Shown here piece after piece: positions 6,511 through 62,037 of a stretch of DNA of 64,000 bases; position 1 is the stretch's first letter; every line of letters starts with the position of its first letter. Where the stretch lies: the NCBI GenBank assembly GCA_028716385.1, contig JAQUPX010000001.1:282775-346774 (forward strand), given 5' to 3'. The notes under the pieces are model-generated. The model saw only the letters and a program-made list of their open reading frames with translations. It made no database searches and was not told where the DNA came from. This stretch comes from a bacterium. GTDB lineage: Bacteria; Hydrothermota; UBA3073; JACQXS01; JAQTXJ01. The position numbers and the translations under genes are program-made.

Positions 6511-6512
6511 AA

Positions 6513-10137: not shown

Positions 10138-10149
10138 TAAAAAATGAAC

Positions 10150-10214
10150 AAAGAAAAAAAGATGTAAAATTTTTCAATACGAAAGAATCGGCAATCGTAT
10201 GGTTACGGGAATAA
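10150..10214 (+). pseudogene. 3'-terminal remnant of a fifth STAS-like paralog (internally deleted copy)
   Basis: 10150-10214 is near-identical to 10941-11004 (the last ~21 codons of paralog 3, ...KKDVKFFNTKESAIVWL(R/K)E*); ATGAACAAA at 10144 mimics the paralog-1 start but is out of frame, giving M-N-K-E-K-K-M-stop. Confidence 0.55.
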
Positions 10215-10226
10215 CGCGTAAAGGAC

Positions 10227-10613: not shown

Positions 10614-10617
10614 TAAA

Positions 10618-11004: not shown

Positions 11005-11017
11005 TGCATACAGAGAT

Positions 11018-12747: not shown

Positions 12748-13130
12748 GCGATATAGATAAATTACAAAAAATACTTATAATAGACGATGAATACAACTTA
12801 TGCACGCTTCTGCGGTTTCATTTGCAGATGGAAGGATTCAAAGTGTTTACTGCGCATAATGCGGCAGATGGCGTAGAAGCGGCAAAAACGAAACTTCCCG
12901 ACCTTATCCTGCTTGACGTAAAAATGCCGGATACGGACGGCATACAAGTATGTAAAATCTTAAGAAGAAACCGTAAAACCAAGCATATCCCTATATTTAT
13001 GATTACGGGATTATCCCAGATGGGCATTATGGAAGATGCGTTCAAGGCAGGCGCGAACGATTATATCTCCAAACCTTTTGACGTGACTACAATCGTAGAG
13101 CTGGTTACCGAAAAATTTTCCAAACTCTAA
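12744..13130 (+). CDS. single-domain response regulator (CheY-like receiver)
   Basis: 128 aa; ILIIDDE...PDLILLDVKMPDTDG...IPIFMITG...AGANDYISKPF; start overlaps kinase stop. Confidence 0.85.
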   Translation: MSDIDKLQKILIIDDEYNLCTLLRFHLQMEGFKVFTAHNAADGVEAAKTKLPDLILLDVKMPDTDGIQVCKILRRNRKTKHIPIFMITGLSQMGIMEDAFKAGANDYISKPFDVTTIVELVTEKFSKL

Positions 13131-13544: not shown

Positions 13545-15725
13545 ATGCGAAATGTTTTCAGGAGTGTTTTTGTCGGGATAATGCTTATCCCGTTTATTTT
13601 ATCCGGCGAACAAAAAATCGCCGCCCGGTCAGTAAGAATTCAGCAGGATAATGTTTTTGAAACAAAAGGCGGAACAAAAACGGGCGTTCCGTCAGAGATT
13701 AACTACCAGGGATGGCTTGGCGCTGCAGATACATCGGCGGTGACAGGAAAACTTAATATGGTATTTAAAATTTATACCGCATCAACAGGCGGGACATTAT
13801 TATGGACAGAGCAAGACAGCGTGCAGGTGAGCAAAGGGATATTCAACGTATTACTTGGCAGCGTAACGCCTATACCGGACAGTATTTTCAACAACACGTC
13901 TCTTTATCTTGAGACACAAGTTGACGCGGACGTTTTAGAGCCGAGGAAAAAACTTACAAGCGTCGGTTATGCAATAAAATCAAAACATTCGGACAATGCA
14001 ACTCGAGCGGACACCGCGACTTACGCAATCAACGCCAACGTTCAGTACGTGGATTCGGCGAGAGTAGCGGCTACGGCTTATGCCTTGACGGATACGACTG
14101 CTTTCAACGACAAATATGTGAGTGTATCCGGCGACACAATGACGGGGCCGTTTGTTGCTTCGGCGAATTCGGCCGATAATTTGGTTTCTTCAATCCAGGC
14201 AGGCGTAGGCAAAGCAGGGTATTTCGAGATAGCCAATATTACAAATGCAAATGACGTGGTATATAATTACACAACCGGCACGGGAAACGCCGGTTTATTC
14301 CGGATAAACAATGCCGTAAATTCGAACAATGCGGTATACGGGATGACGAATGGCGCCGGGCATGCGGTATATGGTTATACGAACGGCACGGGGAATGCGG
14401 TACGCGCGACTACAATCGGAGCCGGGGATGCGCTGTATAGTTATACGACCGGTACCGGGGGCGCGGGATATTTTAATATAAACAATGCTTCAAATGCGAA
14501 CAATGTAGTATATGGGACTACGAATGGCGACGGGGATGCAATATCCGGATATACGACCGGAGCCGGGCATGCGGTATACGGGCAGACAAATTCCAGCGGG
14601 GATGCTGTATACGGTTATACGAACGGCACGGGCAGGGCAGCGTTATTCCAGATAGGGAATGTTTCAAATGCAAGCGATGCTTTGTATACTTATACAAACG
14701 GCACGGGAAAAGCGGCGTATTTTGAGATAGGAAATGTCGCGAGTTCAAGTCCTGTGGTGCATGCGTATACAAACGGCACGGGAAACTGCGGGTATTTTTC
14801 GATAGCCAATGCTTCGAATTCAAACAACGCAGTCTATGCTTCTACGAGTGGAAACGGGCATGCGATACAGGGGTATATGGCAGGAACGGGCACCGCGGGG
14901 TATTTTTCGGTAAACAATGCCGCAAGCGCAGGCGAGGCAATAGCCGCAACTACAATCGGAACGGGCAGGGCGGGGTATTTTTCGATAAGCAATGCCACGA
15001 ATCCAAGTTCCGTAATATATGCGACTACAAATGGAAACGGAGTAGCAGGGCATTTCCAGGTAAGCAATGTTTCAAGTTCAGGCCCTGCGCTGTATGGGGT
15101 AACGAATGGCAGCGGGGAAGCCGTGTACGGGTCAGGGAGCGGAAGCGGGATTGCGGTACGCGGGAGCACAAACGGAACGGGTAGGGCAGGATTTTTCCAG
15201 ATAACAAATGTTTCAAATTCAAGCGATGTGTTGTATGGAACTACGGACGGAAGCGGGAACGTGGTGCATGGTTATACAAGCGGAACGGGCAGGGCGGGGT
15301 ATTTCCAGATAAACAATGTTTCAAATTCGTCAGATGTAATTTATTTAACGTGCAACGGGACGGGGAATTTCATAAATACGTCTAAAAGCGGTTGTTACCT
15401 TGACAAAGACGGTGTATGGCATACTCCAAGCAGTCGTGAACTCAAAGAAAACATAGAAGAACTCCGTGCGGATGAAGCGATGAGTGCGGTTGAAAAGTTG
15501 AATCCGGTTAAATTCAATTACAGGAAAGGTGGAGGAGAAAGCTATGTAGGGTTTATCGCTGAGGACGTGCCCGACCTGGTAGCAATGAAAGACAGGAAAT
15601 CTTTATCGCCGATGGACATAGTAGCGGCTTTGACGAAGGTAGTGCAGGAACAGCAGAAAAGCATACAGGCGCAGCAAAAAGAGATAAACGCATTAAGGGA
15701 AAAAGTAGACCGGCTAACAAAATAA
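13545..15725 (+). CDS. secreted fibre-like repeat protein with C-terminal intramolecular-chaperone (peptidase S74 / endosialidase-chaperone-like) domain
   Basis: 726 aa; AGGAGG upstream; signal-like N-terminus; about 20 copies of a ~21-aa unit (YTNGTGxAGYFxIxNxSNxxxVVY); C-terminal SSRELKENIEEL...LNPVKFNYRK...GFIAEDVPDLVA...coiled-coil tail fits the tail-fibre chaperone pattern SDxRLKxNI...PVxF...GFIAQEV..PxLV. Confidence 0.7.
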   Translation: MRNVFRSVFVGIMLIPFILSGEQKIAARSVRIQQDNVFETKGGTKTGVPSEINYQGWLGAADTSAVTGKLNMVFKIYTASTGGTLLWTEQDSVQVSKGIFNVLLGSVTPIPDSIFNNTSLYLETQVDADVLEPRKKLTSVGYAIKSKHSDNATRADTATYAINANVQYVDSARVAATAYALTDTTAFNDKYVSVSGDTMTGPFVASANSADNLVSSIQAGVGKAGYFEIANITNANDVVYNYTTGTGNAGLFRINNAVNSNNAVYGMTNGAGHAVYGYTNGTGNAVRATTIGAGDALYSYTTGTGGAGYFNINNASNANNVVYGTTNGDGDAISGYTTGAGHAVYGQTNSSGDAVYGYTNGTGRAALFQIGNVSNASDALYTYTNGTGKAAYFEIGNVASSSPVVHAYTNGTGNCGYFSIANASNSNNAVYASTSGNGHAIQGYMAGTGTAGYFSVNNAASAGEAIAATTIGTGRAGYFSISNATNPSSVIYATTNGNGVAGHFQVSNVSSSGPALYGVTNGSGEAVYGSGSGSGIAVRGSTNGTGRAGFFQITNVSNSSDVLYGTTDGSGNVVHGYTSGTGRAGYFQINNVSNSSDVIYLTCNGTGNFINTSKSGCYLDKDGVWHTPSSRELKENIEELRADEAMSAVEKLNPVKFNYRKGGGESYVGFIAEDVPDLVAMKDRKSLSPMDIVAALTKVVQEQQKSIQAQQKEINALREKVDRLTK

Positions 15726-18596: not shown

Positions 18597-18699
18597 TTCA
18601 TCCCTAAGATACGGCTAAACAAACACCTTGTCAATTTTTTATCTGTTATAGTCATTATAGAAAGCCCTTGAGTCCGCCTGCCCACAGTTCTTTTTGGTA

Positions 18700-18870
18700 G
18701 ACCTGCCTTTTGTCATTCTCGTGAAAACGGGAATCCATTTCGTGGTTTAGTGCTTTGCCCGTCCTTTCCTGCCCGCCGTTCCTTTTGGTAGGCCTGCCTT
18801 TTGTCATTCTCGTGAAAACGGGAATCCATTTCGTGGTTGAGTTGTCATTCTGAGTCGAAGACGAAGAATC
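18700..18870. repeat. intergenic direct repeats (two copies of TTTTGTCATTCTCGTGAAAACGGGAATCCATTTCGTGGTT plus a related GTCATTCTGAGTCGAAGACGAAGAATC unit)
   Basis: Near-identical ~80-bp blocks at about 18690-18760 and 18780-18840, read directly. Confidence 0.5.
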
Positions 18871-19221
18871 TCTTTGTTATTTTTTCGGCGATAGTCTGCG
18901 AAAATCCCTGCCTGTCCGCCTCAGGCGGAGCAGGTGCGTCCAAAAAATTGTTTTCTATTTTTCGTGGTTACTTAGAGTTTGTTCCTCTCAGGAACATTAC
19001 TCTAAGTTATCCAGCTCAGCTGGGCCTTCTTTTGTTTTTATTTGTTTGGAGTTTACCCCGCTTTGGCGGGGTGGTTAAAGCTTTTCCATTCTCTTTCTTT
19101 TGTTTTGAACTTTGCGGCTTAGCGACTTGGCGCGAGATATTCCGTTTTCTATTTCTGTTCTCTGTTTTTGTCTCTTAAAGTCTCATCCCTGCCTGCCGGC
19201 AGGCAGGAAGTCCCTGTTGAA

Positions 19222-19602
19222 CTATTTGTCTCTTTTCGTAGCAGTTTTTCTCTTAAGGAATTCGACACTCCCGGAAATGATATTAGCGAAGCCCAGAATC
19301 CATCCAATAGGGTACGGCAAAACCGTAAGCCCCCACCACCACGAATGTGCGCCGGGACCAAATCCTCCGACAGCGCTCCATCCAAACAATGCTCCGACTC
19401 CTACTGCTATCATAATAAAAATAAATCTCCAGTAACGGAACAAACTGCGCCGGTTTTTATCAAGGAACGTACCGAACAAAACCATACCGCTGGCGGGAAG
19501 GATAAGCAGAGAGCCTTCCAGGGGATCCACGATTCCGAGTATCATAAAAATACTGCCAACAACAATCATAACCCGCGACCATTTCATAATGTTAATTTCC
19601 AA
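19222..19602 (-). CDS. small multi-pass membrane protein (hypothetical)
   Basis: 126 aa with three to four hydrophobic helices (IVVGSIFMILGIV, MVLFGTFL, FIFIMIAVGVGALFGW, LTVLPYPIGWILGFANII); overlapping plus-strand ORFs have no such features. Confidence 0.4.
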   Translation of the reverse strand: MEINIMKWSRVMIVVGSIFMILGIVDPLEGSLLILPASGMVLFGTFLDKNRRSLFRYWRFIFIMIAVGVGALFGWSAVGGFGPGAHSWWWGLTVLPYPIGWILGFANIISGSVEFLKRKTATKRDK

Positions 19603-19666
19603 TAAAAGGAATAAATGTCAAGTGGGAAATTAAAGTGACAGTTCTTTACCGGATTCGGCGGATAAA

Positions 19667-19864
19667 CTATCCGTTTTTCCTGAATTCTTTCGCCCATTCT
19701 TGATGTTTACAGCTTGGGCATTGAAGGAGTTTTTTACCGGGGAGGAGTACTTTGAAAACAAAACCGCATTTACGGCATTTATAAACGTGTGTGTTGGCAT
19801 ACCCTATTATGATGGAAAGCAGAACGATTACTGCAATTAAAATCCCAATCATCCATTTTTGCAT
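19667..19864 (-). CDS. small membrane-anchored zinc-ribbon protein (hypothetical)
   Basis: 65 aa; N-terminal helix IGILIAVIVLLSIIIGY then CRKCG...CPSCK (two CxxC pairs). Confidence 0.4.
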   Translation of the reverse strand: MQKWMIGILIAVIVLLSIIIGYANTHVYKCRKCGFVFKVLLPGKKLLQCPSCKHQEWAKEFRKNG

Positions 19865-20172
19865 TGCACAACTAATATATGTTAAAAATCCGCACTGTCA
19901 AGAAAATAGCTCCCCTGTGTTCCGATTATACGATTACACGAATATCCTAATAACGACTTTGTCTGTTAATTTTGATATTTAATATTTATTTATCTCTTAC
20001 AAGTCTCTTACAGTCCCTGTTGAAATTCTTTCTGTTATCTGCTTGCCTACGCCTGCCCGCCGTTCTGTTTGGAGGGGTAGGTTTTTCGTGATGGACTTTC
20101 TTGTGTTCCGTTCTATGTTTTTCTGTTTAGTATAATTTCGTGTTTTTGTGCCTTAGTGGCGAGTATTACTCT

Positions 20173-24177: not shown

Positions 24178-24224
24178 AGTTTTAACTAATTCCCCTCATC
24201 TCCCTATCCGCCTTATTCTTTTCT

Positions 24225-24651
24225 TTTAATCTCTCCAATCTATTACCAACCCTTGATTTATCTAGGGATGGTTATCCAGCTCTGCTGGAAAATCTCCAAT
24301 CCAAAATCCAAAATCTATTACTTGCCTGCCCCGTACATTTATTGCACAGGGGCGCTCACTTGGTAGCCGCAAGCTTTAGCTTGCGCCTGTCCACCTTTTG
24401 TTTTGGCGGAAAGCGGGGAAGAATCTCGTTTTTCCCCTTCGCCCTTTGCTCTTCTCGCTCCTCCGTATCTCCCCAATTCGCATTCCAAAATCTTTTTTTT
24501 CAGTATCTTTTAATTCCCCAATTCCTTCTTTTAATCCGTTCAATCCCCAATCCCTGCCTACCGGTCAGGCAGGCAAAATCTAAAATCTATTACCAGCCCT
24601 TGAGTTATCTAGGGATGGTTATCCAGCTCCGCTGTGGCTGGAAAATCCGCC
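24225..24651. repeat. repeat-rich intergenic region containing remnants of T9SS-linker coding sequence
   Basis: Two copies of CTATTACCxxCCCTTGAxTTATCTAGGGATGGTTATCCAGCTCxGCTG (about 24235-24290 and 24585-24640); AATCCAAAATCCAAAATC and CCCTGCCTACCGGTCAGGCAGGCAAAATC blocks match coding sequence at 33585-33625; GGTAGCCGCAAGCTTTAGCTTGCGC hairpin at about 24360. Confidence 0.45.
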
Positions 24652-26370
24652 CTATCCCTCGTTTTCTATTGTTTGAAATAAATGCTGGTATAAGATATTC
24701 GTTTGTATCAATTCTCTGTGCGTCCCCGATGTAACAAAATTCCCCTTATCAAGAACTATCGTCCTGTCCGCTAAAAGCATCGTTTCTTTTGAATGACTGA
24801 TAACTATCGTTATTCTGTCGTCTTTGCCGTCTATTAAAACATTATGTATCGCTTTAATGTTGTTCGCATCAAGTCCTGCCGTGGCCTCATCCAACAGCAA
24901 TACGTCCGGTTTTTTTAGAAAAGCCCGCGCTATCGCCAGCCTCTGTTTTTGCCCGCCACTCAGATTTCCACCGCTTTCATTAAGTTTATGATTCAACCCG
25001 TCTTCTAATTGATTAATGAATTCCATTGCCTGGGCCCTTTTTAGAACAGTATCAATTTCTTCATCGGTTGAATTTAACTTGCCCATAGAAATGTTCTCTT
25101 TTATCGTTGCTAAAAATAAAAAAGGCGCCTGTTGCACTATTGCTATTTTATTCCGATACGAATCCAGGGATATTGAATTGATGTTAATGCCGTTTGCGCT
25201 TATCTCACCTTTCTCCGGCATATATACCCGCTGCAATAACTTAAATATCGTCGTTTTCCCCGCCCCGCTTTCCCCTACTAATGCTATGATTTCACCTTTC
25301 TTTGCGCTGAAAGAAACATTCTTAAGACCAAAATCATCCTTTTCGGAATATGAAAAACAAACTTCTTTAACGTTGAGCGTTTCTATGCTTTCAATATCAA
25401 TGCCTTCTTTCTTCTCCTGCTCTATAGAGAATAATTCCTGCACTCTTTTTATACAACTTTTCCCCGTTTGAAGAGATATGTTAAGATTCGTTAACCCGGA
25501 CGTTGAACTGAATACTTGCACCATAAGCATATTAAACGCAAAGAAACTGCCAAAAGTAAGCTCCCCTTTAATTATCAGGTATCCCCCCAGCCATATTAAT
25601 ACGACCTTCCCCAGGGTCGAACTTAGTTGCCCCAGCACAGATGGCTTGCAGGAATATACGAACCGTTCAATTGCAATATTAAACAACTCTGTTAATTTTT
25701 TAGCATACCTGCTTATAATTTCTTTTTCTGCTCCTAAATATTTTATTTCCAGACGCCCGGAAATGATTTCGTTCAAATAAAAAGTATTATTTGCTTTCTT
25801 CTCCAGCATTTTTATCGTTCTCTGGTTCATCCCGCGATTAAATAGCTTTAAAGAAATGGCAAAAATCGGGAGTATACTGAAAAACACTAAAGATAACGTA
25901 AGATTAAACTTCGCAATGATTATCACGCTAACTACAAGCGTAATCGCATCTTTTGTTAAATTTAACATATCGTCTATAAAAAACGTATTAACTCCTTCCA
26001 AATCTCCCTCTATTCGTCCCGTAAGATATCCCGACCCTTTTTGAGATAATTCTTTCCAGTTGGAATTAATAATTCGTCCCAATAATATTGACTTTAAATA
26101 GTTCCCGAAACCATACTTCAGGCAATTTGCCATATAAGTATCAAAAATGCTTATCCCTATAAGGCAAACTTGAGCAGCCAATATCGCAATAGCCCATTTT
26201 GTTAAAAGAAGATAGTCTTTAGAAGGCAAAACAATATCAAGGATATGTTTTGTCAGGAGCGGAATTATAACGACTAAAGCGACTTTCAATATGTTCCCAA
26301 CAACAATAAGTAGTGATGATGAAAAAGCAATCCCAAAAAAATATTTACCTGCTAATTTTCTTACTTTCAT
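24652..26370 (-). CDS. ABC exporter, fused permease-ATPase (no N-terminal C39 peptidase domain)
   Basis: 572 aa; N-terminal half with multiple hydrophobic helices; Walker A GESGAGKTT, signature LSGGQKQRLAIARAF, Walker B VLLLDEATAGLD; start overlaps the rSAM stop by 4 nt. Confidence 0.85.
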   Translation of the reverse strand: MKVRKLAGKYFFGIAFSSSLLIVVGNILKVALVVIIPLLTKHILDIVLPSKDYLLLTKWAIAILAAQVCLIGISIFDTYMANCLKYGFGNYLKSILLGRIINSNWKELSQKGSGYLTGRIEGDLEGVNTFFIDDMLNLTKDAITLVVSVIIIAKFNLTLSLVFFSILPIFAISLKLFNRGMNQRTIKMLEKKANNTFYLNEIISGRLEIKYLGAEKEIISRYAKKLTELFNIAIERFVYSCKPSVLGQLSSTLGKVVLIWLGGYLIIKGELTFGSFFAFNMLMVQVFSSTSGLTNLNISLQTGKSCIKRVQELFSIEQEKKEGIDIESIETLNVKEVCFSYSEKDDFGLKNVSFSAKKGEIIALVGESGAGKTTIFKLLQRVYMPEKGEISANGININSISLDSYRNKIAIVQQAPFLFLATIKENISMGKLNSTDEEIDTVLKRAQAMEFINQLEDGLNHKLNESGGNLSGGQKQRLAIARAFLKKPDVLLLDEATAGLDANNIKAIHNVLIDGKDDRITIVISHSKETMLLADRTIVLDKGNFVTSGTHRELIQTNILYQHLFQTIENEG

Positions 26371-27731
26371 AGTTTGTCCTTATAGATGAGTTTCATTATC
26401 CCACACTGGTATTCATCCGGAGTATATAAATTGCCGTTTGCCAATAAAGCAGCCCCCGGACACATTTTACAATAATTCTTTATACTACATATATTACACG
26501 TTTTCAAATCGTCTACTTTAATATTATGATGCATTCTTATTTCATCACTTCCCCATATCTCATCTATTGATTTGTTTCTAATGTTTTGACTCCCGTACCT
26601 CAATGTTGCACACGGGAAAACGTTCCCCTTAGCATCTATTGCAAAACTATAAGCTCCGGAATAACAATTTGCTGAATTTGGCCCCCTAATATCCTCTTCT
26701 TGTTGCAAACTCTCTCTTCCCACTTTGTTAATTAACCAATCAATCTGTGATAAAGAACAGAAAACATTTTGATTCATATTTCTATACAATCCTTTTCTCA
26801 TTTGGGTAATGTCGTAAGTATATCTTAAACCATAAGATGCGCATAATTTTTCCATTGCGGGAATCTGCCGGTAATTCATCGCCAAAACTGGGGTTTTAAT
26901 ACGGATGCGCATATTAGTTTTAGAAAGTATGGGAAGTAAAGTTTTTATATGCTCTGAGGCAGTTACTCCGCAAATCTCTTTATAAGTTTTTTCATTAGCT
27001 CCCAAAACGCTAATTTCTAACTTGTATACCCCAAGAGATTCCAAATGTTTTATAAGAGCCTTATTCAATAAATACCCATTTGTAAAAACTACTACTGCAA
27101 AATTTCTATCTATTGCCATCTTTATAATATTAAGAAAATCTTTTCTTATAAGAGGTTCTCCCCCTGAAATTGTAACTCTTAAACACTTTTTTTCTTTGAG
27201 CCAATTTAATATCTCTATAATTTCATTTAGTGAAAGGTCTTCGGATGTTTTTGATTTTTTACTTGGTATTTTGTTATAGCAATGTATACATTGGAAATTG
27301 CACATAGATGAAACCTCTATAAATGCCGACATAGGAAGTTTTTCTCCGGCATATAATCTACGTATTTTCTTAGAATCTAATATCTGCTTAGCATTAAATA
27401 GTTTTTCATTTTTGTTTGATTGGGATTTCATTATTTGTTCTTTATCAACAAACAAAATACTTTCGGCATTTAACCAATTTATTATTAATTTTATATTATC
27501 AACAATAAACTTGTGCGATATAATTATTTTCTTTTTATACGCTAAAGAAATTATATTTTTTTCAATCTTATTCTTGCTATTACCTTTTAAAAAAGAGTAT
27601 ACTATTAGTGCCCCAATTCCATTTATAAGGCTATAGCTATCTGTTTTTTTATTAAAAACAATTGCTTGATTTAGATTTTTAAAATATCTACAAATAAAAA
27701 TCTTATTTAATCTCGACATTTTTAGTCCCAT
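26367..27731 (-). CDS. radical SAM enzyme with C-terminal SPASM domain and ~130-aa N-terminal extension (possible peptide-recognition, RRE/PqqD-like)
   Basis: 454 aa; CNFQCIHC (CxxxCxxC) cluster; glycine-rich SAM motif VTISGGEP; C-terminal Cys cluster CNICSIKNYCKMCPG typical of SPASM; N-terminal region before the rSAM core is a small alpha/beta unit. Confidence 0.8.
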   Translation of the reverse strand: MGLKMSRLNKIFICRYFKNLNQAIVFNKKTDSYSLINGIGALIVYSFLKGNSKNKIEKNIISLAYKKKIIISHKFIVDNIKLIINWLNAESILFVDKEQIMKSQSNKNEKLFNAKQILDSKKIRRLYAGEKLPMSAFIEVSSMCNFQCIHCYNKIPSKKSKTSEDLSLNEIIEILNWLKEKKCLRVTISGGEPLIRKDFLNIIKMAIDRNFAVVVFTNGYLLNKALIKHLESLGVYKLEISVLGANEKTYKEICGVTASEHIKTLLPILSKTNMRIRIKTPVLAMNYRQIPAMEKLCASYGLRYTYDITQMRKGLYRNMNQNVFCSLSQIDWLINKVGRESLQQEEDIRGPNSANCYSGAYSFAIDAKGNVFPCATLRYGSQNIRNKSIDEIWGSDEIRMHHNIKVDDLKTCNICSIKNYCKMCPGAALLANGNLYTPDEYQCGIMKLIYKDKL

Positions 27732-27780
27732 CAGTATTTTACTTTTTTAATACATTATAAAATTAATAATCTACTCCTTG

Positions 27781-27803
27781 TGTACACCTGTAAAAGGTGT
27801 ACA
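27781..27803 (-). terminator. perfect 9-bp-stem hairpin between small ORF and rSAM gene (possible attenuator)
   Basis: TGTACACCT-gtaaa-AGGTGTACA, 17 nt downstream of the small-ORF stop and about 50 nt upstream of the rSAM start. Confidence 0.4.
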
Positions 27804-27819
27804 CAAGGATGCAATACAA

Positions 27820-27963
27820 TTACATAAGGACCATTGTACAATTATCCGTCATGTCAGTTTCATCTTCATTCAATCTACTAGGCCCTATACGTCTTGCTAA
27901 TTTCCCTGGTGTTGTCCCAGCCTCAATAGTTACGGTACTTTCAATTTTTGTTAGTTCAAACAT
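27820..27963 (-). CDS. unannotated 47-aa ORF, candidate precursor peptide
   Basis: Minus-strand ATG at 27963 with AAGGAGGTGA 8 nt upstream; translation MFELTKIESTVTIEAGTTPGKLARRIGPSRLNEDETDMTDNCTMVLM; stop TAA at 27820-27822; sits directly 5' of the rSAM-ABC operon on the same strand; below the 60-aa track cutoff. Confidence 0.35.
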   Translation of the reverse strand: MFELTKIESTVTIEAGTTPGKLARRIGPSRLNEDETDMTDNCTMVLM

Positions 27964-27990
27964 TTTTTCATCACCTCCTTTTTCACATAG

Positions 27991-28073
27991 CAATCACTTT
28001 AAATGTATGTCAAGAGAATTGCAAGAAAAAATCCTAGTAAAATATTAGGATTTCTAGTAAAATATTAGTATCC
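27991..28073 (-). promoter_or_regulatory. promoter/operator module with tandem direct repeats (CTAGTAAAATATTAG x2), -35-like TTGACA and a TTTAAAGT box
   Basis: Minus-strand reading: TTTTACTAGAAATCCTAATATTTTACTAGGATTTTTTCTTGCAATTCTCTTGACATACATTTAAAGTGATTGC, just upstream of the RBS of the small ORF; about 80 percent identical to 61715-61794. Confidence 0.45.
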
Positions 28074-33345: not shown

Positions 33346-34407
33346 TCATTTTATTAGTACCAGTTTCTTTGTCTCTTTAAAATTATTAGTTGTCACCCTC
33401 ACAAAATACACCCCATTCTTTTTCACATTCGGAGTAAACACATAATCCCCTTTGCTTAATGCGCCATTGTAAATAACCTCTTTCGTTCTCCCACACAAAT
33501 CGTAAATTTTCAATTCCGCATTTATACTTTTAGGCACATCCAAATAAATCTTATTTTTTCTTATCTGTAAATCCGCATTCCCCAATCCCTGCCTACCGGT
33601 CAGGCAGGCAAAATCCAAAATCGATGGGTCTTCTATCCCTGCACCGGCATCATAAACTGCTATTGTTGCCCTGCCGCTATCATCCCATGCTATTGCTTCG
33701 CTGGGCGACGAAGCGGAAATCTCTCCCCCGGCTCTAAAGTATACATTTGAAATACCTGAGAAAACGTAATGAGACGCAAGATTTGTGAAGTATAAATCAA
33801 GAGGATAGAGAGTGGAAAGCCCTACGTTCATATTAAATGCATTAGCCACGGGAGCTATGTTCTGATTAGGACAATATGCATTTTCAGACATTATTAAAAT
33901 TCCACCTGTTTTTAAGAGCCAGTTGAATGCATTTAAAGCGAAAGCTTTGTTATCTGCAGAATCAATATACTCACTGTCACAGAAATTACAGTCCCCGACT
34001 AACAATACGCGCCCGTTTTTTCTTTTAATATATTGAGCAAGAGAATCTACTTCAGAGGGTTGATAAAAACTATCCCAGGCACATGCGGAATTAATTACTA
34101 TAACATCGTAACCCGATAGATTCATAAAACCTATACCTGTGTCAACGACATCTATGCAATAATCATTAGAATCTAAAAGAGCAGTTAATCTGCTATACCC
34201 TCCGGAAGGAAGGTAGTAGTTACTGTATATTCCGTGCGTAGTATCCCACAGAACTGAGTATGTTGCCGTTTTCCCCTTTTTTTGTAATGATGGTTTTTGG
34301 GATTCATTCGTAGTATTAATTATTCTTCCTGTAGTAGCATCGTACTGAGCATAAGTCAGGTTACAAAATACAATTATTCCTGCAAAGACAAGCCGAATTT
34401 TTCTCAT
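33346..34407 (-). CDS. secreted hypothetical protein with T9SS C-terminal tail, duplicate A
   Basis: 353 aa; signal-like N-terminus; first ~270 codons about 98 percent identical at nucleotide level to 37724-38797. Confidence 0.55.
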   Translation of the reverse strand: MRKIRLVFAGIIVFCNLTYAQYDATTGRIINTTNESQKPSLQKKGKTATYSVLWDTTHGIYSNYYLPSGGYSRLTALLDSNDYCIDVVDTGIGFMNLSGYDVIVINSACAWDSFYQPSEVDSLAQYIKRKNGRVLLVGDCNFCDSEYIDSADNKAFALNAFNWLLKTGGILIMSENAYCPNQNIAPVANAFNMNVGLSTLYPLDLYFTNLASHYVFSGISNVYFRAGGEISASSPSEAIAWDDSGRATIAVYDAGAGIEDPSILDFACLTGRQGLGNADLQIRKNKIYLDVPKSINAELKIYDLCGRTKEVIYNGALSKGDYVFTPNVKKNGVYFVRVTTNNFKETKKLVLIK

Positions 34408-37723: not shown

Positions 37724-38797
37724 CTATTTCATTAATATTAGTTTCTTTGTCTCTTTTATATTCCCCGCACTTACCCTCACAAAATACACCCCACTCTTTT
37801 TTATATTCGGAGTAAACACATAATCCCCTTTGCTTAATATGCCATTGTAAATAACCTCTTTCGTTCTCCCGCATAAGTCGTATATTTTCAATTCCGCATT
37901 TATACTCTTTGGCGCGCTCAAATAAATCTTATCTTTTAGCAATTGGAGCGAAGCGACATCCCGCCCTGGCGGGACCAAAATCGATGGGTCTTCTATACCT
38001 GCACCGGCATCATAAACTGCTATTGTTGCCCTGCCGCTATCATCCCATGCTATTGCTTCGCTGGGCGACGAAGCGGAAATCTCTCCCCCGGCTCTAAAGT
38101 ATACATTTGAAATACCTGAGAAAACGTAATGAGACGCAAGATTTGTGAAGTATAAATCAAGAGGATAGAGAGTGGAAAGCCCTACGTTCATATTAAATGC
38201 ATTAGCCACGGGAGCTATGTTCTGATTAGGACAATATGCATTTTCAGACATTATTAAAATTCCACCTGTTTTTAAGAGCCAGTTGAATGCATTTAAAGCG
38301 AAAGCTTTGTTATCTGCAGAATCAATATACTCACTGTCACAGAAATTACAGTCCCCGACTAACAATACGCGCCCGTTTTTTCTTTTAATATATTGAGCAA
38401 GAGAATCTACTTCAGAGGGTTGATAAAAACTATCCCAGGCACATGCTGAATTAATTACTATAACATCGTAACCCGATAGATTCATAAAACCTATACCTGT
38501 GTCAACGACATCTATGCAATAATCATTAGAATCTAAAAGAGCAGTTAATCTGCTATACCTTCCGGAAGGAAGGTAGTAGTTACTGTATATTCCGTGCGTA
38601 GTATCCCACAGAACTGAGTATGTTGCCGTTTTTTCTTTTTTTTGTAATGATAGTTTTTGGGGTTCATTCGTAGTGTTAATTATTCTTCCTGTTGTAACGT
38701 CATATTGAGCGTAAGCTATGTTAAAAAATACGATTATTCCTGCAAAGACAAGCCGAATTTTTCTTCTGCCTGAGGCGGATTTCGCTTTGCTCAACAT
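37724..38797 (-). CDS. secreted hypothetical protein with T9SS C-terminal tail, duplicate B
   Basis: 357 aa; see duplicate A; the linker before the tail differs (VPPGRDVASLQLL versus DFACLTGRQGLGNADLQI). Confidence 0.55.
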   Translation of the reverse strand: MLSKAKSASGRRKIRLVFAGIIVFFNIAYAQYDVTTGRIINTTNEPQKLSLQKKEKTATYSVLWDTTHGIYSNYYLPSGRYSRLTALLDSNDYCIDVVDTGIGFMNLSGYDVIVINSACAWDSFYQPSEVDSLAQYIKRKNGRVLLVGDCNFCDSEYIDSADNKAFALNAFNWLLKTGGILIMSENAYCPNQNIAPVANAFNMNVGLSTLYPLDLYFTNLASHYVFSGISNVYFRAGGEISASSPSEAIAWDDSGRATIAVYDAGAGIEDPSILVPPGRDVASLQLLKDKIYLSAPKSINAELKIYDLCGRTKEVIYNGILSKGDYVFTPNIKKSGVYFVRVSAGNIKETKKLILMK

Positions 38798-50516: not shown

Positions 50517-50553
50517 AATTACTTACGAAATATAACTATTTCAGGATTATTTT

Positions 50554-55288: not shown

Positions 55289-58200
55289 TCATTTCATCAA
55301 TATGAGTTTCTTTGTCTCTTTGTATTCACCAGCTTTAAACTTCGCAAAGTATATACCCGTCGGATAGTTCCTTGATTCAAGAGTTTCCTTGTAACAACCC
55401 GGTACTTTCTCTCCATCTACCAATGTCTTTATGCATCGTCCTGTAAGGTCGTAAAGTTTTAAAGAAACTTTGCTAGTTTTCGGTAGTGAATATTGAATCG
55501 TTGTTCTGTCCCTAAATGGATTAGGATAATTTTGATAGAGCTTGAATACAAGCGGTTTAGACATAGTTCCTTGCGATCCGCCGCTTCCAAGTTCAGCTCT
55601 GCAAATCTTTCCTTCGCCCCCATCTGTCGCATTATCAGGACCTATTCCTTGAGTTACCAAAACATTTCCCGTGAAAGTCTCTACATTTCTTATAAGTGCG
55701 ATTCTCCCGCCTGCCGATCCACCACCGTCCGCTTGTGTATTATTTGCTCCGTCATTTCCTTTTGCTTCTATGTTCCCTTCACCTTTTAATGAATCACAGC
55801 TTATAAAAATCGAGCCACCGCTTCCGGCACCGCCTGCATATCCACTTGCATATTTATATCCAGCTTCTCCATTTACTGAAACTACTCCGTCAATTGTTAT
55901 CACATTTGCTGAAAGTTTTAATCTTCCTCCACCGGAACCTCCCGGGGCTACTGTATAGTTATTTCCAGCGCCTCCGCCGGAACCAAGAGATGTAGGATTA
56001 AGAGAATCTGCTTCACCATAAGCAACTCCACCGGATATTCCGCTTTCTCCGTTTCCCCCTGTGTTTCCGTAACCTGCTCCGCCGGCACCCGCTCCATTCA
56101 ATCCGTTTGTGCCTTTCCCGGTTCCGTTTGATGTTAAATAGCCTTTTTTATCTGCACTTATCACTGCTCCCGAACCGACAGTTATCTCATTTGCTATAAT
56201 AGAAGCATTACCTAATACGGAATCTCCGGAATCAAGCTGGAATTTTACATTGCTGAAACTTGCTCCGTTAACAAACGAAAGCCTGTCATGTGAGCCTATT
56301 GTCGTATTTACCGGAGAAACAAGCAATTCTACGTTTCCGTTAGATTGAGCTACTTTTATTATTCCGCTCTGTCCGTCTTGTGCCTTATCCGGATAAATAG
56401 AGCCTGCCCCAACGCCACCGCTTGCCAATAACTTTCCACTAAAAGATGAATTCCTGTAATCAATTTGAAGCCTTCCCGCGCTTCCGCCTCCACCCTGTGC
56501 TGTGCTTCTATATGCGCCATTTCCTCCGTTTGTTTCTGCAATTCCGCTCCCTGCAATTGAATCGCAAGTTATCCAAATTGAACCTGCTCCACCGCCACCG
56601 CCGGCATAAGACGAGCCGCCTGCTTCTCCATCCGTTCCATTAGATTCTATTTTCCCTGAAAGCGTTAATGTCGCTGTTGAGAGTTTAATTAAACCGCCTC
56701 CTGCTCCACCCCAAGCCGAATAAGAGCTTCCGTTTCCGCCACCACAGCCAAGGTAAGCCATTGGAGAAAGAGTATCAGGATAAGCGGCTCCGCCTGATAT
56801 TTCTGTTTCTCCTAAACCGCCTTGCCCACAGCACGCTCCACCGCCTGCGCCTGCACCATTTGTGCCATTTGTGCCTTTGCCCGGTCCACTGGCTTTCGGA
56901 TTTCCCTTGCCTGTAGAGCTTAAAGTTCCTAATAGTTGCATTGTTTGAGCTTCCACGTCTATGATACCTGTAGTAGAATCAGTGCCATTAAATGCAACGC
57001 TATTCATCGTAGCGCCTGAATTTATCTTAAATAAGTTTATGTTATAATGTCTACCTGAAACGAGTCTTGTGCTGTCCGTTGTCCATACCCAATCAGTCCC
57101 GCCGTGATTTGTTCCACCAAGTCCTACGCTTAACTGGAAGTGACGCACTCCACCTGCACCTGAATTATAAACATAGTTTGGATTAGTGCGTAAGTTCTGT
57201 GTAGCCCCATTCCCAAGATCAAGCAAATATATGCCGTATCCCGAAGGCACATCGGACGGTAAAATGTTAAGTGTTATATTTTCGTTTGATTTATCCGTAT
57301 TGACTTCAAAGTTCCATACCATTGTGGAATCCGTAAGGTCAACCGTTTCTCTTACATCCTGACAGAACTTATCTCCTAAAGGATGATTCCATTCGGAATG
57401 AGGAAAATAGAGGTGTACATAATTGGAAGGGGGAGTAGAATATTTTGGAATGTCATATCCTTCGTCACAACTGTCAGAAGCTTCTCCAAGCACTCCTGCG
57501 TAATTTGAAATATCTTCGGCAAAGTTGGAAGTTGCTTTGACCTGGAGTTTCCAGTCGAGAGGTAGAATAGTTTTTATCGGCATAAAAGTACTATATCCGG
57601 AAACGGTACCTGCTATGGTAGCGGAATCGCTGTTCTCCCAGTAATTATTCTGAGCGATAATCGTATCTCCGGATGTGTTTACAAAATTCCATAACCCATT
57701 AGCATAAATGTTATTATTCCCGGGATTGTATTCCGCATTGGAATAAGTAGCATTACCAAAATTAATTCCTGTTCCTGTATTGGTAAATACTCCAATTGAG
57801 TCATTCGCAACTATTGTATTTTCCCTGCCGAGTAGGGAGGAATTATATGCTTTTATACCTATTCTGTTATGATGAATCGTACTTTTCCATACTTCCCCGT
57901 AAGGTGAATTATCATAGAGAATTCCGGCTTGTTTACAATTCTCTATTTCAAAACCACGTATTGTAATGTACTGTTTATTGCTTACATTAAATCCATAATC
58001 CCTTGTATTGTCTCCGGTAATGACAACTCTTTCTCCTTCGGCAGCAAGATAAACAATTCTTCCGTCGTCGGGATCTCCTGCGTTTTGGGGAGTTACGGTC
58101 TCGTGATAAGTGCCACCCTTTACGATAACGGCTTCACCGGGTTGAAGAGTGTTAGCGGCTTTTTGAATAGTTGCCCATGGTGATGTTTCAGTCCCCGAAT

Positions 58201-61200
58201 TCCCATCGTTACCGCCATTGCAATTCACGTATTTTACGGATTTGTATGTGATATAAGGCACAGGCGTACTCCATGGACCAATATTGCCAGACCTATCTAT
58301 TGCACAAACAGCATAATAATACATCCAGTCGACTGGCGCCCACTCATACCATGTCCTTTGAATAGGAGAAAATGTTGTAGCTAGATTAAACGTGTTTGGC
58401 GAGTTACTCGCACTCACAAAATAGCCGCCTAAATACGGTTCATGGTTAGATTCGCCAGTACCTGCCTCTGTAAATGGAGTAGCATCCCACACACAACGAA
58501 TAATGCCACCTCTGCCTCTAAAGAAAGACACGCCTGTTACCTGAGGAGGCTTCAAGATATTATTAGCACCGGTTTTTACAAAACTACCAGAAGGAGGCGG
58601 TGTTTCACTAAAAGAAGCAGGCTCTGAAGGTATTTCATTGGTGCCAACAGCATTAACCGCTCTAATTGCATAATAATAATCCCGTCCAACCTCACCGGTA
58701 AAGTCCTGGTAATTCAGCCCCGATGTGTTGCCAATATATTCATAATCTCCGTTACTGCTTACTTCCGAACGATAAATATAATATTCTAGGGCATAGGGAA
58801 CGGAGTTCCAACTTATAAAACCACTTTTTTCACCATGGTCTATGGGATAAGGAATACGTGACATTACGCTAGGTGCAATAGGCCTATTAGTAATAGGCAT
58901 TAATCCCCATGGTCTGGATTTGGCAGGCCCAATCCAGAATTGTGCTCGGTTTTCCCCCCCGTCATCCCATATGACTTTTACTTTGTACCAATATGGAATG
59001 TTAAAACAAACAGTATTATCCGTATACCCATAGAAATTAAAGCCGTTGTTTGTCGCATTAATTACACTGCCCGGAACCTCTTCAAACGGACCTTCCTCGC
59101 ATATACTGCGATATACAATATACTTAGTTATCTTATCGCTTACACCGCTTGTCCATGTTTCTTCTCCGGTAATCCAGCCTATGCTGACACCTCCTTCATA
59201 CCCTTCTGCCCAAATATTACCTAACAATGGAGCATAATACCTGCCAAGGAGTGTACCTTCTTCAACGTCTATGTTTGGACGTCTTCCTCCGGAATATGCC
59301 ATCCAGCCTTTTTCGCCGTTACTGCATACACAATAAAGATCATTATTCTTTAAGAAATATTCATGTTCCCATTCTGCATATGTTTTGTAAATTGCATCTG
59401 ATGTGCCAACGTAGAATGTTCCTTTCTCGCCGCCGCCGATACTTCCATATTTAACATCAGTGAACCATGTAGGATACATTATCCTGCCGTCAAAATTAAT
59501 ATCTACTGAAGTCGAATTCCACGCAGAGCCGGAACTTGCCCCAACCCCTCCCGTGGAAATTCCCATTATTGCGTCGTCTATAGCTCCGCCTGATCCTGTA
59601 ATTCCAAAATTTGCATGTCTGACATCTGCCCAGTTGACAGGAGCGTTTACCCAATCACTTTGTCCCCAACCCCAGGGATACGGATTATGTCCCGGTTCAT
59701 CATTCCTGAATGTATTAAAAGATGCAGCAGTTGTCTCATTCCATTTGGTCCAAGTTATGCCTCCATTCTTTGTCTGCGCCACACACCCTCTGTTGTCCGT
59801 TGTTATCCAAACGTTATTGCCAAGCAGATTGTTTTTGTCTACCCATATACCTCTTACACAGTCGGAAAAATGCTCTGGTGTGTTTGGGACGGGTTTTGTA
59901 GTTATATTTGCCTTCCAAGTTTGTCCAAAATCTACTGATTTTAATACATATCCTCCGGATGCTCCTATGTATCCAACCTGGTCATTTGCAAAATCCACAC
60001 AATAGAAAGCAAGGTTATTATTGTCTGCACCCACTATATTATCCGAATATAAAAAAGATTGCCCTCCTCCTGTTTTTTCAAGTTTTGCTATAATTCCTCG
60101 CACACCTGTATAAGTTATATCCGTGCTTACTTTTACATTTGTCCCTACGACATATGCATAGTCCTGCGTCTCGCATACTCCATAAAAATCCCAATCATTT
60201 CCACAACCCGTTACCGGGGTCCACTTTGAATATGCATCTTTTTTTAAGATTAATCCTTTATCTCCAACTGCATAGTTTTCACTAACTGCTCTTATAATTT
60301 GGTTATTGGAACCAAAATCCGGCTGTTGATTAAACCAACCGGAAGTAAATAAAGGGTCAAGTTTGTCGTCAAAAATAAATAAGCCGAAAGTATTACTATA
60401 AGAACCAGGTAGTGCTATTTCTAAATCACCATCGTTATCTATATCCCCTATTGCAAGCTCATGAATAGTAGTACCTATGGATAAAGTGTACGCGGTTTCC
60501 CATAAAAAACTTCCGTCATAATTAAGGCAAAGAAGACAATATTTTAACGCAACAAACGGATCTAGAGAAATAATTATTTCTGGGTTAGGAGTTAGGTCAT
60601 TTATATTGGCAACCGTTATAGAAAGACTTGTTGTAGCGATGCCGGTTAAAGCATAAGTCCATTTGAAGCTACCATCATGATATAAAGAATAAATTTGAGT
60701 CCCAGACGCAAAAATTATTTCATCATAAGGATTGTTGTCTATATTCGCTATTGCCGGGGAAGAAATAATTCTGTTTCCTGTTGTATAACTCCATCTGCAA
60801 GAACCATTTGTGTTTAACAGATATACTTTGTTATCATCCGAACCGGCTACTATTTCCAAAGTGGAGTTATTATTATCTATATCCGTTATTGCCGGGGAAA
60901 ACCTTACTTTGTCTCCTGTTGCATAATTCCATCTGCAAGAACCATTTGCATTTAATACGTATACATTGTTGTCATAAGAGCCGACCACTATTTCTAAAGC
61001 AGTGTTATTATTATCTATATCCGCTATTGCCGGGGAAGATTCTACGTCGCCTCCTGTTGCATAAGTCCATCTAAAAGAACCATTTGCATTTAATACATAT
61101 ACATTGTTATCATCAGAGCCGAATACTATTTCTAAAGGACCGTTATTATTATCTATATCCGTTATTGCCGGGGAAGATTCTATTTTATCTCCTGTTGGAG

Positions 61201-61642
61201 TCGAATAAGACCATAAACAATTGCCATCATGGTCAAGGGCATAAATTTTGCCATCCCAACTTCCAAAAACTATCTCAAGATCACCATCTCCGTTTATGTC
61301 TCCTACTGCCGGGGCAGAGGATACACCCTCCCATGGACTGGTGGGTGCATAATTCCAAAGGTCACTGCCATTATGGTCTATCGCATATACCCTTCCTTCA
61401 AAATTTACCATAGATTGCGCATTGTAAGTTCCAAGTATTGTTTCTAAATATCCATCCCCATTAATATCCGCAAGAACTCCTCCCGATTTAGCCGTGAGCG
61501 TATTTAAACGAGCAGTTTTAAATATCGGTGCAGTACTCATTTTCCCTGTTCCAATATTCTGGAAATTTGTATTACGTAAATCATGCCCATGCTTAGGCCA
61601 TGCCGAAAGACTCATTACTGCTAAAAGATAAACATACCACAT
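55289..61642 (-). CDS. giant multi-domain surface protein (propeller repeats, beta-helix, Gly-rich repeats) with T9SS C-terminal tail
   Basis: 2117 aa; AAGGAGGT 5 nt upstream; N-terminal IDNNNxxLEIVxGSDDNxVYVLNxNGS repeats; central pectate-lyase-like block; Gly-rich GGxGxxG segments; C-terminal LKLYDLTGRCIKTL...GIYFAKFKAGEYKETKKLILMK. Confidence 0.7.
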   Translation of the reverse strand: MWYVYLLAVMSLSAWPKHGHDLRNTNFQNIGTGKMSTAPIFKTARLNTLTAKSGGVLADINGDGYLETILGTYNAQSMVNFEGRVYAIDHNGSDLWNYAPTSPWEGVSSAPAVGDINGDGDLEIVFGSWDGKIYALDHDGNCLWSYSTPTGDKIESSPAITDIDNNNGPLEIVFGSDDNNVYVLNANGSFRWTYATGGDVESSPAIADIDNNNTALEIVVGSYDNNVYVLNANGSCRWNYATGDKVRFSPAITDIDNNNSTLEIVAGSDDNKVYLLNTNGSCRWSYTTGNRIISSPAIANIDNNPYDEIIFASGTQIYSLYHDGSFKWTYALTGIATTSLSITVANINDLTPNPEIIISLDPFVALKYCLLCLNYDGSFLWETAYTLSIGTTIHELAIGDIDNDGDLEIALPGSYSNTFGLFIFDDKLDPLFTSGWFNQQPDFGSNNQIIRAVSENYAVGDKGLILKKDAYSKWTPVTGCGNDWDFYGVCETQDYAYVVGTNVKVSTDITYTGVRGIIAKLEKTGGGQSFLYSDNIVGADNNNLAFYCVDFANDQVGYIGASGGYVLKSVDFGQTWKANITTKPVPNTPEHFSDCVRGIWVDKNNLLGNNVWITTDNRGCVAQTKNGGITWTKWNETTAASFNTFRNDEPGHNPYPWGWGQSDWVNAPVNWADVRHANFGITGSGGAIDDAIMGISTGGVGASSGSAWNSTSVDINFDGRIMYPTWFTDVKYGSIGGGEKGTFYVGTSDAIYKTYAEWEHEYFLKNNDLYCVCSNGEKGWMAYSGGRRPNIDVEEGTLLGRYYAPLLGNIWAEGYEGGVSIGWITGEETWTSGVSDKITKYIVYRSICEEGPFEEVPGSVINATNNGFNFYGYTDNTVCFNIPYWYKVKVIWDDGGENRAQFWIGPAKSRPWGLMPITNRPIAPSVMSRIPYPIDHGEKSGFISWNSVPYALEYYIYRSEVSSNGDYEYIGNTSGLNYQDFTGEVGRDYYYAIRAVNAVGTNEIPSEPASFSETPPPSGSFVKTGANNILKPPQVTGVSFFRGRGGIIRCVWDATPFTEAGTGESNHEPYLGGYFVSASNSPNTFNLATTFSPIQRTWYEWAPVDWMYYYAVCAIDRSGNIGPWSTPVPYITYKSVKYVNCNGGNDGNSGTETSPWATIQKAANTLQPGEAVIVKGGTYHETVTPQNAGDPDDGRIVYLAAEGERVVITGDNTRDYGFNVSNKQYITIRGFEIENCKQAGILYDNSPYGEVWKSTIHHNRIGIKAYNSSLLGRENTIVANDSIGVFTNTGTGINFGNATYSNAEYNPGNNNIYANGLWNFVNTSGDTIIAQNNYWENSDSATIAGTVSGYSTFMPIKTILPLDWKLQVKATSNFAEDISNYAGVLGEASDSCDEGYDIPKYSTPPSNYVHLYFPHSEWNHPLGDKFCQDVRETVDLTDSTMVWNFEVNTDKSNENITLNILPSDVPSGYGIYLLDLGNGATQNLRTNPNYVYNSGAGGVRHFQLSVGLGGTNHGGTDWVWTTDSTRLVSGRHYNINLFKINSGATMNSVAFNGTDSTTGIIDVEAQTMQLLGTLSSTGKGNPKASGPGKGTNGTNGAGAGGGACCGQGGLGETEISGGAAYPDTLSPMAYLGCGGGNGSSYSAWGGAGGGLIKLSTATLTLSGKIESNGTDGEAGGSSYAGGGGGAGSIWITCDSIAGSGIAETNGGNGAYRSTAQGGGGSAGRLQIDYRNSSFSGKLLASGGVGAGSIYPDKAQDGQSGIIKVAQSNGNVELLVSPVNTTIGSHDRLSFVNGASFSNVKFQLDSGDSVLGNASIIANEITVGSGAVISADKKGYLTSNGTGKGTNGLNGAGAGGAGYGNTGGNGESGISGGVAYGEADSLNPTSLGSGGGAGNNYTVAPGGSGGGRLKLSANVITIDGVVSVNGEAGYKYASGYAGGAGSGGSIFISCDSLKGEGNIEAKGNDGANNTQADGGGSAGGRIALIRNVETFTGNVLVTQGIGPDNATDGGEGKICRAELGSGGSQGTMSKPLVFKLYQNYPNPFRDRTTIQYSLPKTSKVSLKLYDLTGRCIKTLVDGEKVPGCYKETLESRNYPTGIYFAKFKAGEYKETKKLILMK

Positions 61643-61714: not shown

Positions 61715-61794
61715 CAGTTTACTTTAAATATAGATTAATGCTTTTGCAATAAAAAATCCTAGTAAAATATTAGTATTTCTAGTAAAATCTTAAC
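61715..61794 (-). promoter_or_regulatory. promoter/operator module homologous to 27991-28073 (tandem CTAGTAAAAT repeats, TTGCAA, TTTAAAGT)
   Basis: Minus-strand reading: TTTTACTAGAAATACTAATATTTTACTAGGATTTTTTATTGCAAAAGCATTAATCTATATTTAAAGTAAACTG, about 75-150 nt upstream of the giant-protein ATG. Confidence 0.45.
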
Positions 61795-61822
61795 ATTTTT
61801 AGTTGGAGTTTCCGGCCTTGGC

Positions 61823-61915
61823 GGGATTACTCCAACTTATCAGTGTTTCTGATTAGTTAGAGTTTGCGATTCGCTCGTTACTCCAACTTATCAGTGTTTC
61901 TGATTAGTTAGAGTT
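61823..61915. repeat. tandem direct repeat of ~53-bp nested-palindrome element (TTACTCCAACTTATCAGTGTTTCTGATTAGTTAGAGTT x2)
   Basis: Two adjacent copies read directly; related single copies near 33185-33245 and 9100-9185; AGTTGG and CCAACT arms flank GC-rich inner hairpins. Confidence 0.5.
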
Positions 61916-62037
61916 TTATTCCTGAAATATTCGGTTTTTTAAAATTGTTTCGGGGGAAATGTAAGCTATTTAATTGAGGATAAACAAAAAGCCCTTCCCA
62001 TCACTGGGAAGGGCTTCAAATTAACTTTTTTTATTAA

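Follow-up and report, generated by a model that had tools for sequence, protein, structure and literature searches.

LytTR-family activators act at promoters of bacteriocin and quorum-sensing operons, with AgrA P2/P3, ComE, PlnC/D, BlpR, SilA and the HdrR/BrsR 'LytTR regulatory systems' as examples. Their repeats follow the consensus [TA][AC][CA]GTTN[AG][TG], and bacteriocin regulators usually adjoin their targets and control their own genes through these repeats. Tandem sites are also known from OmpR and PhoB, for example as the 20-bp OmpR F1-F3 boxes and the pho boxes. In LytTR promoters, repeats of 9-10 bp are separated by a spacer that is mostly 12 bp long and in a minority of cases 11 or 13 bp, and between the repeats and the -35 element that follows them there are 4-11 bp, with 10 bp the commonest distance (PMC6193735). 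S. mutans SMU_1070c is a case with an 11-bp inter-repeat spacer (PMC6193735), and SilA recognises repeats of 10 bp that are set 11 bp apart by AT-rich DNA (PMC2766830). The repeat sequences are poorly conserved across LytTR systems (PMC6193735), which typically control bacteriocin or peptide operons (PMC6193735; PMC2766830). A second relevant category is the putative mobile promoter of Matus-Garcia, Nijveen and van Passel (2012), in which upstream regions align over >50 nt at >=80% identity and both flanking coding sequences are non-homologous (PMC3488235).

The window analysed here, by which we mean the whole 64-kb stretch of DNA, holds two homologous sites on its minus strand, at 28072-27989 (site 1) and 61796-61714 (site 2), the features of which are collected in Table 1. 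The initial annotation had described a pair of about 80 percent identical sequences at these positions, and this is borne out by blastn of the site 1 intergenic region against the window, which returns a single non-self match of 72 bp with 83% (83.3%) identity and E=1.3e-16. With flanks of +/-400-500 bp included (800-1000 bp compared), the likeness is limited to these 72 bp, and an nhmmer profile of the module core finds no copies in the window beyond sites 1 and 2. The 15-mer CTAATATTTTACTAG has three exact matches in the 64 kb and a fourth copy with two mismatches, all within the two modules; matches with three mismatches occur in the window at chance level. CTAG is found only 30 times in the window against ~227 expected, yet there are two in each module. 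The flanking genes are a 308-aa methyltransferase upstream of site 1 and a 644-aa T9SS protein upstream of site 2, with a 47-aa peptide and a 2117-aa protein, respectively, downstream. Neither blastp of the peptide against the giant protein nor that of the methyltransferase against the 644-aa T9SS protein gives a significant match.

Table 1. Coordinates of the features at sites 1 and 2 (window positions); counts of invariant positions refer to the three full copies of the module
Feature	Position	Strand	Remarks
Site 1, distal direct repeat CTAATATTTTACTAG	28054..28068	-	exact match; 13/15 invariant
Site 1, proximal direct repeat CTAATATTTTACTAG	28034..28048	-	starts 20 bp after distal; 14/15 invariant
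Site 1, T-tract GATTTTTTC	28025..28033	-	between proximal repeat and -35; 7/9 invariant
Site 1, putative -35 TTGCAA	28019..28024	-	also '-12' in rival sigma-54 reading; 6/6 invariant
17-bp spacer			8/17 invariant
Site 1, putative -10 TAAAGT	27996..28001	-	17 bp past TTGCAA; predicted transcription start ~27989; TAARGT 5/6 invariant
Downstream sequence			7/22 invariant
Shine-Dalgarno AAGGAGG (27980-27974) and 47-aa peptide gene (ATG 27963, stop 27820)	27820..27980	-	
Hairpin between peptide gene and radical SAM gene	27776..27808	-	perfect 14-bp stem; fold z = -5.35
Radical SAM/SPASM enzyme (26367-27731) and ABC exporter (24652-26370)	24652..27731	-	Pfam
Intrinsic terminator of upstream T9SS gene	61988..62017	-	
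Upstream boxes ATTTCCCCCGAAA (61960-61948) and TATTTCAGG (61929-61921)	61921..61960	-	homologous to JAQTXJ010000059.1 3920-3965
~105-bp insertion, site 2 only	61810..61914	-	parts the upstream boxes from the rest of the cassette
Site 2, distal repeat TTAAGATTTTACTAG	61779..61793	-	2 mismatches
Site 2, proximal repeat CTAATATTTTACTAG	61759..61773	-	exact match
Site 2, T-tract GATTTTTTA and -35 TTGCAA (61749-61744)	61744..61758	-	
Site 2, putative -10 TAAAGT	61721..61726	-	17 bp past TTGCAA; predicted transcription start ~61714
Vestigial Shine-Dalgarno GAGGAG, then TTG-TAA	61678..61697	-	aligns with Shine-Dalgarno/ATG of site 1 and of the STC_131 copy
2117-aa FG-GAP/beta-propeller protein with T9SS C-terminal sorting domain	55289..61642	-	own AAGGAGG just 5' of ATG 61642

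Read on the minus strand, the module consists of a distal repeat, AAAT(C/A), a proximal repeat, GATTTTTT(C/A), TTGCAA, a variable 17-bp spacer and TAAAGT. The repeat starts lie 20 bp apart at both sites (28068/28048 and 61793/61773), which amounts to two helical turns and corrects the ~21 bp and the single helical turn given in the initial annotation. Its two direct repeats per site are present at both, with the distal one of site 2 being degenerate.

A third full copy occurs in the metagenome-assembled genome (MAG) 'bacterium STC_131' (GCA_028688815.1, contig JAQTXJ010000059.1, positions 3980-4061), so that the module, earlier said to occur only at the two sites, is confined to them within the window and not beyond it. 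This copy was found by scanning representative genomes, a collection that lacks the window's own genome, with the pattern ATTTTACTAG-N10-ATTTTACTAG; the scan gave one genuine module copy (STC_131) and three chance tandem repeats. The STC_131 copy runs TTAATATTTTACTAG-AAATC-TTAATATTTTACTAG-GAATTTTTC-TTGCAA-17 bp-TAAGGT, with a Shine-Dalgarno site and an ATG next in line, and its spacings (20, 9 and 17 bp), order and orientation are identical to those of the window copies. The invariant 19-mer ACTAGGAATTTTTCTTGCA further marks two partial copies with which the STC_131 contig, 14.4 kb long, ends: partial copy A keeps a core of 16-19 nt alone and has no -10 at 17 bp, and partial copy B has a single upstream repeat, with the contig stopping 13 nt past TTGCAA. 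The window genome (protein MDD5528672.1; reads SRR22315506) and STC_131 (SRR22315507) are different MAGs from one study, and this sample of three full and two partial copies is what the counts below refer to. Neighbouring proteins of the two are <=32% identical, as against ~90% identity in the 85-bp non-coding core.

Alignment of these copies reveals a common geometry. The three full copies together have six repeat units, and none of these departs from the element (A)TTTTACTAG; an 11-bp spacer separates the 9-bp cores in each of the three. The YTAR motifs begin at offsets 0, 11, 20 and 31, which places about one on each turn of the helix. From the proximal repeat it is 9 bp to TTGCAA, which is invariant in 5/5 module occurrences, and then 17 bp to TAAAGT or TAAGGT, the two being predicted hexamers. 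When pooled, the repeats, T-tract, -35 and -10 are invariant at 49/56 positions and the spacer plus downstream sequence at 15/39 (Fisher p ~1e-6, for blocks drawn post hoc, after inspection of the data). The inter-repeat spacer and the T-tract are conserved almost perfectly, beyond what a binding site ordinarily requires, and recent copying instead of constraint could be the cause.

Taken together, we consider it probable that the module is an activator-dependent sigma-70-type promoter cassette that is reused before unrelated genes, with its regulator encoded elsewhere in the genome. The core promoter would be of the sigma-70 type, with TTGCAA as -35, a 17-bp spacer and TAAAGT as -10. The 17-bp distance is kept despite the diverged spacer sequence, as a -35/-10 pair predicts. 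This pair scores 8/12 against the consensus, just below the threshold of the promoter scan, so it was not called; such a match fits a promoter that needs an activator. Two helical turns separate the direct repeats, and 9 bp lie between the end of the proximal one and the -35 element; from this arrangement we infer an activator that would bind the two (A)TTTTACTAG cores head to tail, 20 bp apart, and recruit RNA polymerase to this mediocre promoter. A LytTR-type binder is favoured, and one of the OmpR/PhoB or AraC type is possible. The promoter/operator reading of the initial annotation, with its predicted promoter activity, agrees with the TTGCAA-17 bp-TAAAGT geometry in 3/3 full copies, with the lack of an RNA fold and with the copy in STC_131, which stands before a peptide gene at an equal distance and likewise oriented. 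Other promoter assignments were tried and rejected. The element TA(C/T)ATTTA resembles the -7 element of a Bacteroidota-type promoter (-33 TTTG / -7 TAnnTTTG), but there is no TTTG 19-21 bp upstream and the genes have strong Shine-Dalgarno sites. With TATATT/TACATT as the -10 instead, the spacer to TTGCAA would shrink to 11 bp, a divergent + strand promoter has the wrong spacings (13 or 33 bp), and the likeness to a phage T7-type promoter is superficial, with no phage RNA polymerase present.

The preferred binder follows from the comparison with the described systems. The module reads 9-bp repeat, 11 bp, 9-bp repeat, 9 bp, TTGCAA-17-TAAAGT, with peptide and bacteriocin genes downstream, and it is because this 9-11-9-9 layout lies within the published LytTR ranges that a LytTR-like activator is favoured. 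Unlike most LytTR promoters, the module has a 20-bp period, which is the minority value, and its repeat departs from the LytTR consensus, with no GTT core on the promoter strand. Furthermore, there is no LytTR gene near either locus among the scanned ORFs, the hosts are uncultured T9SS-bearing bacteria rather than Firmicutes, and one target is a giant surface protein. The module is a candidate LytTR-type promoter: the three geometric features agree with this class, and the repeat sequence and the lack of a regulator gene in the scanned ORFs nearby do not. As for OmpR/PhoB sites, the module may share with them contiguous 20-bp units ending just upstream of -35 and about one YTAR per turn, but its alternate half-units are not clearly alike and no winged-helix regulator was identified among the scanned ORFs. 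With respect to putative mobile promoters, the two window sites align over 72 nt at 83.3% between non-homologous flanking genes, and copies exist both within one genome and between genomes. That category is purely operational and silent on mechanism, whereas in the module an operator and promoter hexamers can be recognised, and site 2 retains the vestige of a ribosome-binding site (RBS). Of the departures from LytTR systems, the mismatch to the consensus is a weak criterion because repeat sequences vary across these systems (PMC6193735).

The initial annotation had put forward the response regulators of the window and an AlbA_2-type regulator as candidate binders. The two response regulators (9377-9760 and 12744-13130) are receiver-only and have no DNA-binding domain, so they cannot bind DNA themselves, and nothing ties the second candidate, an AlbA_2/HATPase_c_4/HTH_24 protein (41872-43299), to the motif. 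A Pfam scan of almost all large window ORFs, covering those outside the surface-protein paralogue cluster at ~31.7-46.9 kb, found no DNA-binding response regulator and no LytTR, winged-helix, AraC or sigma-54 activator domain, and the same search was negative for every gene of the 14.4-kb STC_131 contig. The receiver-only proteins belong to a plus-strand cluster at 9377-13130 that comprises one of them, four paralogous SpoIIAA-like/DUF7793 (STAS) proteins, a PAS histidine kinase and then the other, a layout that resembles a partner-switching system without a DNA-binding output.

Four other explanations were weighed, and all rank lower than a sigma-70 promoter with an activator. It is possible that the promoter is the same and that a repressor or some other HTH dimer uses the repeats as its operators, these being imperfect palindromes (CTAATA-N3-TACTAG) with two dimers on one face, though we regard this as unlikely. 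Each 15-mer, as read from the sequence, does match its own reverse complement at 10/15 positions, the 20-bp spacing puts the sites on one helical face, and an AlbA_2/HATPase_c_4/HTH_24 protein is encoded in the window. However, the left half CTAAT varies across the six repeats (C/T at position 1, T/G at position 5) while ATTTTACTAG is invariant, which favours a direct-repeat site over a palindrome, and sites centred upstream of -35 are typical of activators, not repressors; the AlbA_2 protein, as noted, lacks any tie to the motif. A sigma-54 (-24/-12) promoter, read through AGGAWTTTTTMTTGCA and with the repeats or the upstream boxes serving an enhancer-binding protein, is quite improbable. The exact GG-N10-GC spacing in 5/5 occurrences, the fit of TTGCA to the '-12' consensus and the 16-19-nt core that is the sole part kept in partial copy A are what speak for it. 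Against these stand a -24 element (AGGATT/AGGAAT) that matches TGGCAC at GG only, a conserved TAAAGT at a fixed 17 bp that would be left unexplained, and a conserved T-tract in positions unspecified by the sigma-54 consensus. Moreover, the repeats abut '-24', so that an enhancer-binding protein seated there would get in the way of the holoenzyme, and neither the window ORFs that were scanned nor the genes of the STC_131 contig include a Sigma54_activat protein.

That the module is a non-functional relic, i.e., a duplicated or mobile DNA fragment (a MITE or IS end, or a recombination scar) lying upstream of genes by chance, would suit the several copies, partial ones included, on one 14-kb contig, the repeat insertion that adjoins site 2, and the three independently assembled contigs that end inside the module, as at multi-copy repeats. 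We nevertheless hold this to be very improbable. There are no terminal inverted repeats, target duplications or inverted partner copy; the full copies all share one orientation and one distance to a downstream Shine-Dalgarno/start; conservation is block-wise with the 17-bp hexamer spacing preserved; and the module is kept between two MAGs whose neighbouring proteins are <=32% identical. A conserved non-coding block upstream of start codons could also be a transcribed cis-regulatory RNA, such as a 5' UTR leader, a riboswitch or a small-RNA target. This is hardly credible, since the fold is no better than that of shuffles (z -0.27 to -0.49), the window has no Rfam match at gathering score, the repeats are direct and not complementary, and conservation is highest ahead of the best promoter hexamers. 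Rfam and tRNA searches likewise found nothing.

We return to the activator-dependent sigma-70 reading and to the genes it would serve. At site 1, the Shine-Dalgarno sequence and the ATG fall within ~33 nt past TAAAGT, as expected from the description of both sites as lying just 5' of a strong RBS; at site 2 the description does not hold, in that the working Shine-Dalgarno/ATG of the 2117-aa gene is ~75 nt past TAAAGT. The 47-aa ORF at site 1 was also called on an independent Logan contig. Between a precursor peptide gene and its enzymes, a hairpin is the classic layout by which the peptide is over-expressed relative to the enzymes, and the one at site 1 is likely an attenuator or a partial terminator. 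NCBIfam assigns the radical SAM enzyme and the exporter to no specific RiPP family. A YcaO gene is found downstream of the radical SAM/ABC genes, beyond a 475-bp repeat-rich gap, and because of this gap it is possibly not part of the same transcript. The intergenic DNA at 24178-24651, like that at 18597-20100, is unusually G+C-rich and purine-rich and has its own repeat families, for example 56-nt copies at 24232-24287/24579-24634 (91% identical) and 75-nt copies at 18677-18751/18768-18842 (93% identical). A compositionally similar stretch, with no Rfam match, lies ahead of the partial module copies at JAQTXJ010000059.1 13960-14300.

At site 2, the terminator of the upstream T9SS gene means that a new transcription unit starts in the intergenic region, which calls for a promoter. 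Ahead of their repeats, both site 2 and the copy in STC_131 carry ATTTCCCCCGAAA...TTTCAG...ATAAA (Smith-Waterman score 29, reached in 1/1000 shuffles), and the likeness of site 1 to these boxes is marginal (p ~0.04). Since the boxes are common to site 2 and STC_131, the ancestral cassette would have been >=150 bp long. The insertion that parts them from the repeats at site 2 carries two identical 37-nt units ACTCTAACTAATCAGAAACACTGATAAGTTGGAGTAA (61914-61878 and 61863-61827), 51 nt apart, each of which folds as a 15-bp hairpin (z = -9.1), followed by a third partial arm, ACTCCAACTAAAAATG. This block has no other occurrence in the window; a REP-like element is one possible identity, and it may also be an additional operator or have arisen by tandem duplication. 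Past the giant gene and a methyltransferase, the minus strand at 48771-54100 encodes a DUF5128 beta-propeller, an AhpC/TSA thioredoxin-like protein, an ABC exporter, a secreted 188-aa protein and a 479-aa protein with a HELGH (HExxH) motif. The thioredoxin-like and ABC-exporter genes recall the bacteriocin operon of STC_131, and no small peptide gene is evident there.

In STC_131, the full copy stands ~30 nt ahead of the Shine-Dalgarno/ATG of a gene for a 61-aa bacteriocin-like peptide, in which a double-glycine-like leader can be read by eye. The operon further encodes a 501-aa membrane protein, an ABC ATPase, Yip1, a thioredoxin-like protein, a stand-alone Peptidase_C39, a MacB/FtsX permease, OEP, an HlyD-like adaptor and a second ABC ATPase, a set of genes that resembles the operons for bacteriocin export and immunity in Gram-negative bacteria. 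As one cassette precedes the peptide/radical-SAM operon, the giant T9SS gene and this STC_131 bacteriocin operon, these genes probably form one regulon under a shared regulator. If this is true, the module would be a concrete regulon marker for a lineage without cultured members; one short DNA pattern, scanned for in the two MAGs, would list all genes under the regulator, and autoregulation might reveal the regulator itself. The cassette ties peptide-antibiotic loci to a giant secreted surface protein and is a clean case of promoter reuse before non-homologous genes, within and between genomes. The feature is real yet ordinary in kind and reveals no new kind of mechanism.

A metagenome scan with the loose pattern TTTTACTAG-N11-TTTTACTAG gave no module among the at least 120 matches listed, all of which are unrelated tandem repeats. 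Viral contigs had 0 matches to the first pattern, and of their 8 matches to the 19-mer none has module-like flanks; by their translations (e.g. ...LLGFFIA...) these look like coding sequence matched by chance. Database searches with the radical SAM enzyme, with the giant protein and with the 501-aa protein of STC_131 each gave the query itself as the only close match; two contigs with distant FG-GAP homologues lack the module, and a literature search for the motif returned primer noise only. Assemblers break at multi-copy repeats. Three independently assembled contigs break inside the module, namely two Logan contigs (1-76 and 1-57) and JAQTXJ010000059.1 (14405-14446), and these breaks hint at further copies in these genomes or metagenomes.

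A more far-reaching reading, which we offer tentatively and think rather less likely to hold than not, is that a portable operator/promoter/RBS cassette of ~150 bp has been copied repeatedly in front of a radical-SAM peptide operon, a bacteriocin export operon of the double-glycine type and the gene for the 2117-aa secreted protein, and defines a LytTR-like, possibly cell-density-controlled, non-Firmicutes regulon for antimicrobial peptides and an adhesin-like protein. The vestigial RBS of site 2, the hairpin insertion and the contig breaks would then be traces of ongoing promoter mobility, and the host would be an uncultured T9SS-bearing lineage from one cave or groundwater study.

Several other features of the window were recorded. 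Like CTAG, GATC is scarce (31 observed vs ~227 expected), and this depletion, some seven- to eight-fold for either tetramer, suggests that they are avoided under restriction-modification pressure or for reasons of repair. Within the T9SS surface-protein family at 31.6-48.6 kb, 300 nt are 100% identical between two paralogue genes (33615-33914 and 37975-38274), which indicates recent gene conversion or duplication. The plus strand at 3812-7199 carries five tandem paralogues of ~205-230 aa (one ORF extended to 314 aa) that belong to no Pfam family and have signal peptides, a common 'GLKPSDL...EKEKG' pattern and glycine-rich membrane segments. Finally, a 726-aa protein (13545-15725, plus strand) combines Gly/Thr/Asn-rich repeats of ~25 residues with a C-terminal Peptidase_S74 (endosialidase chaperone) domain, an architecture typical of phage tail fibres.
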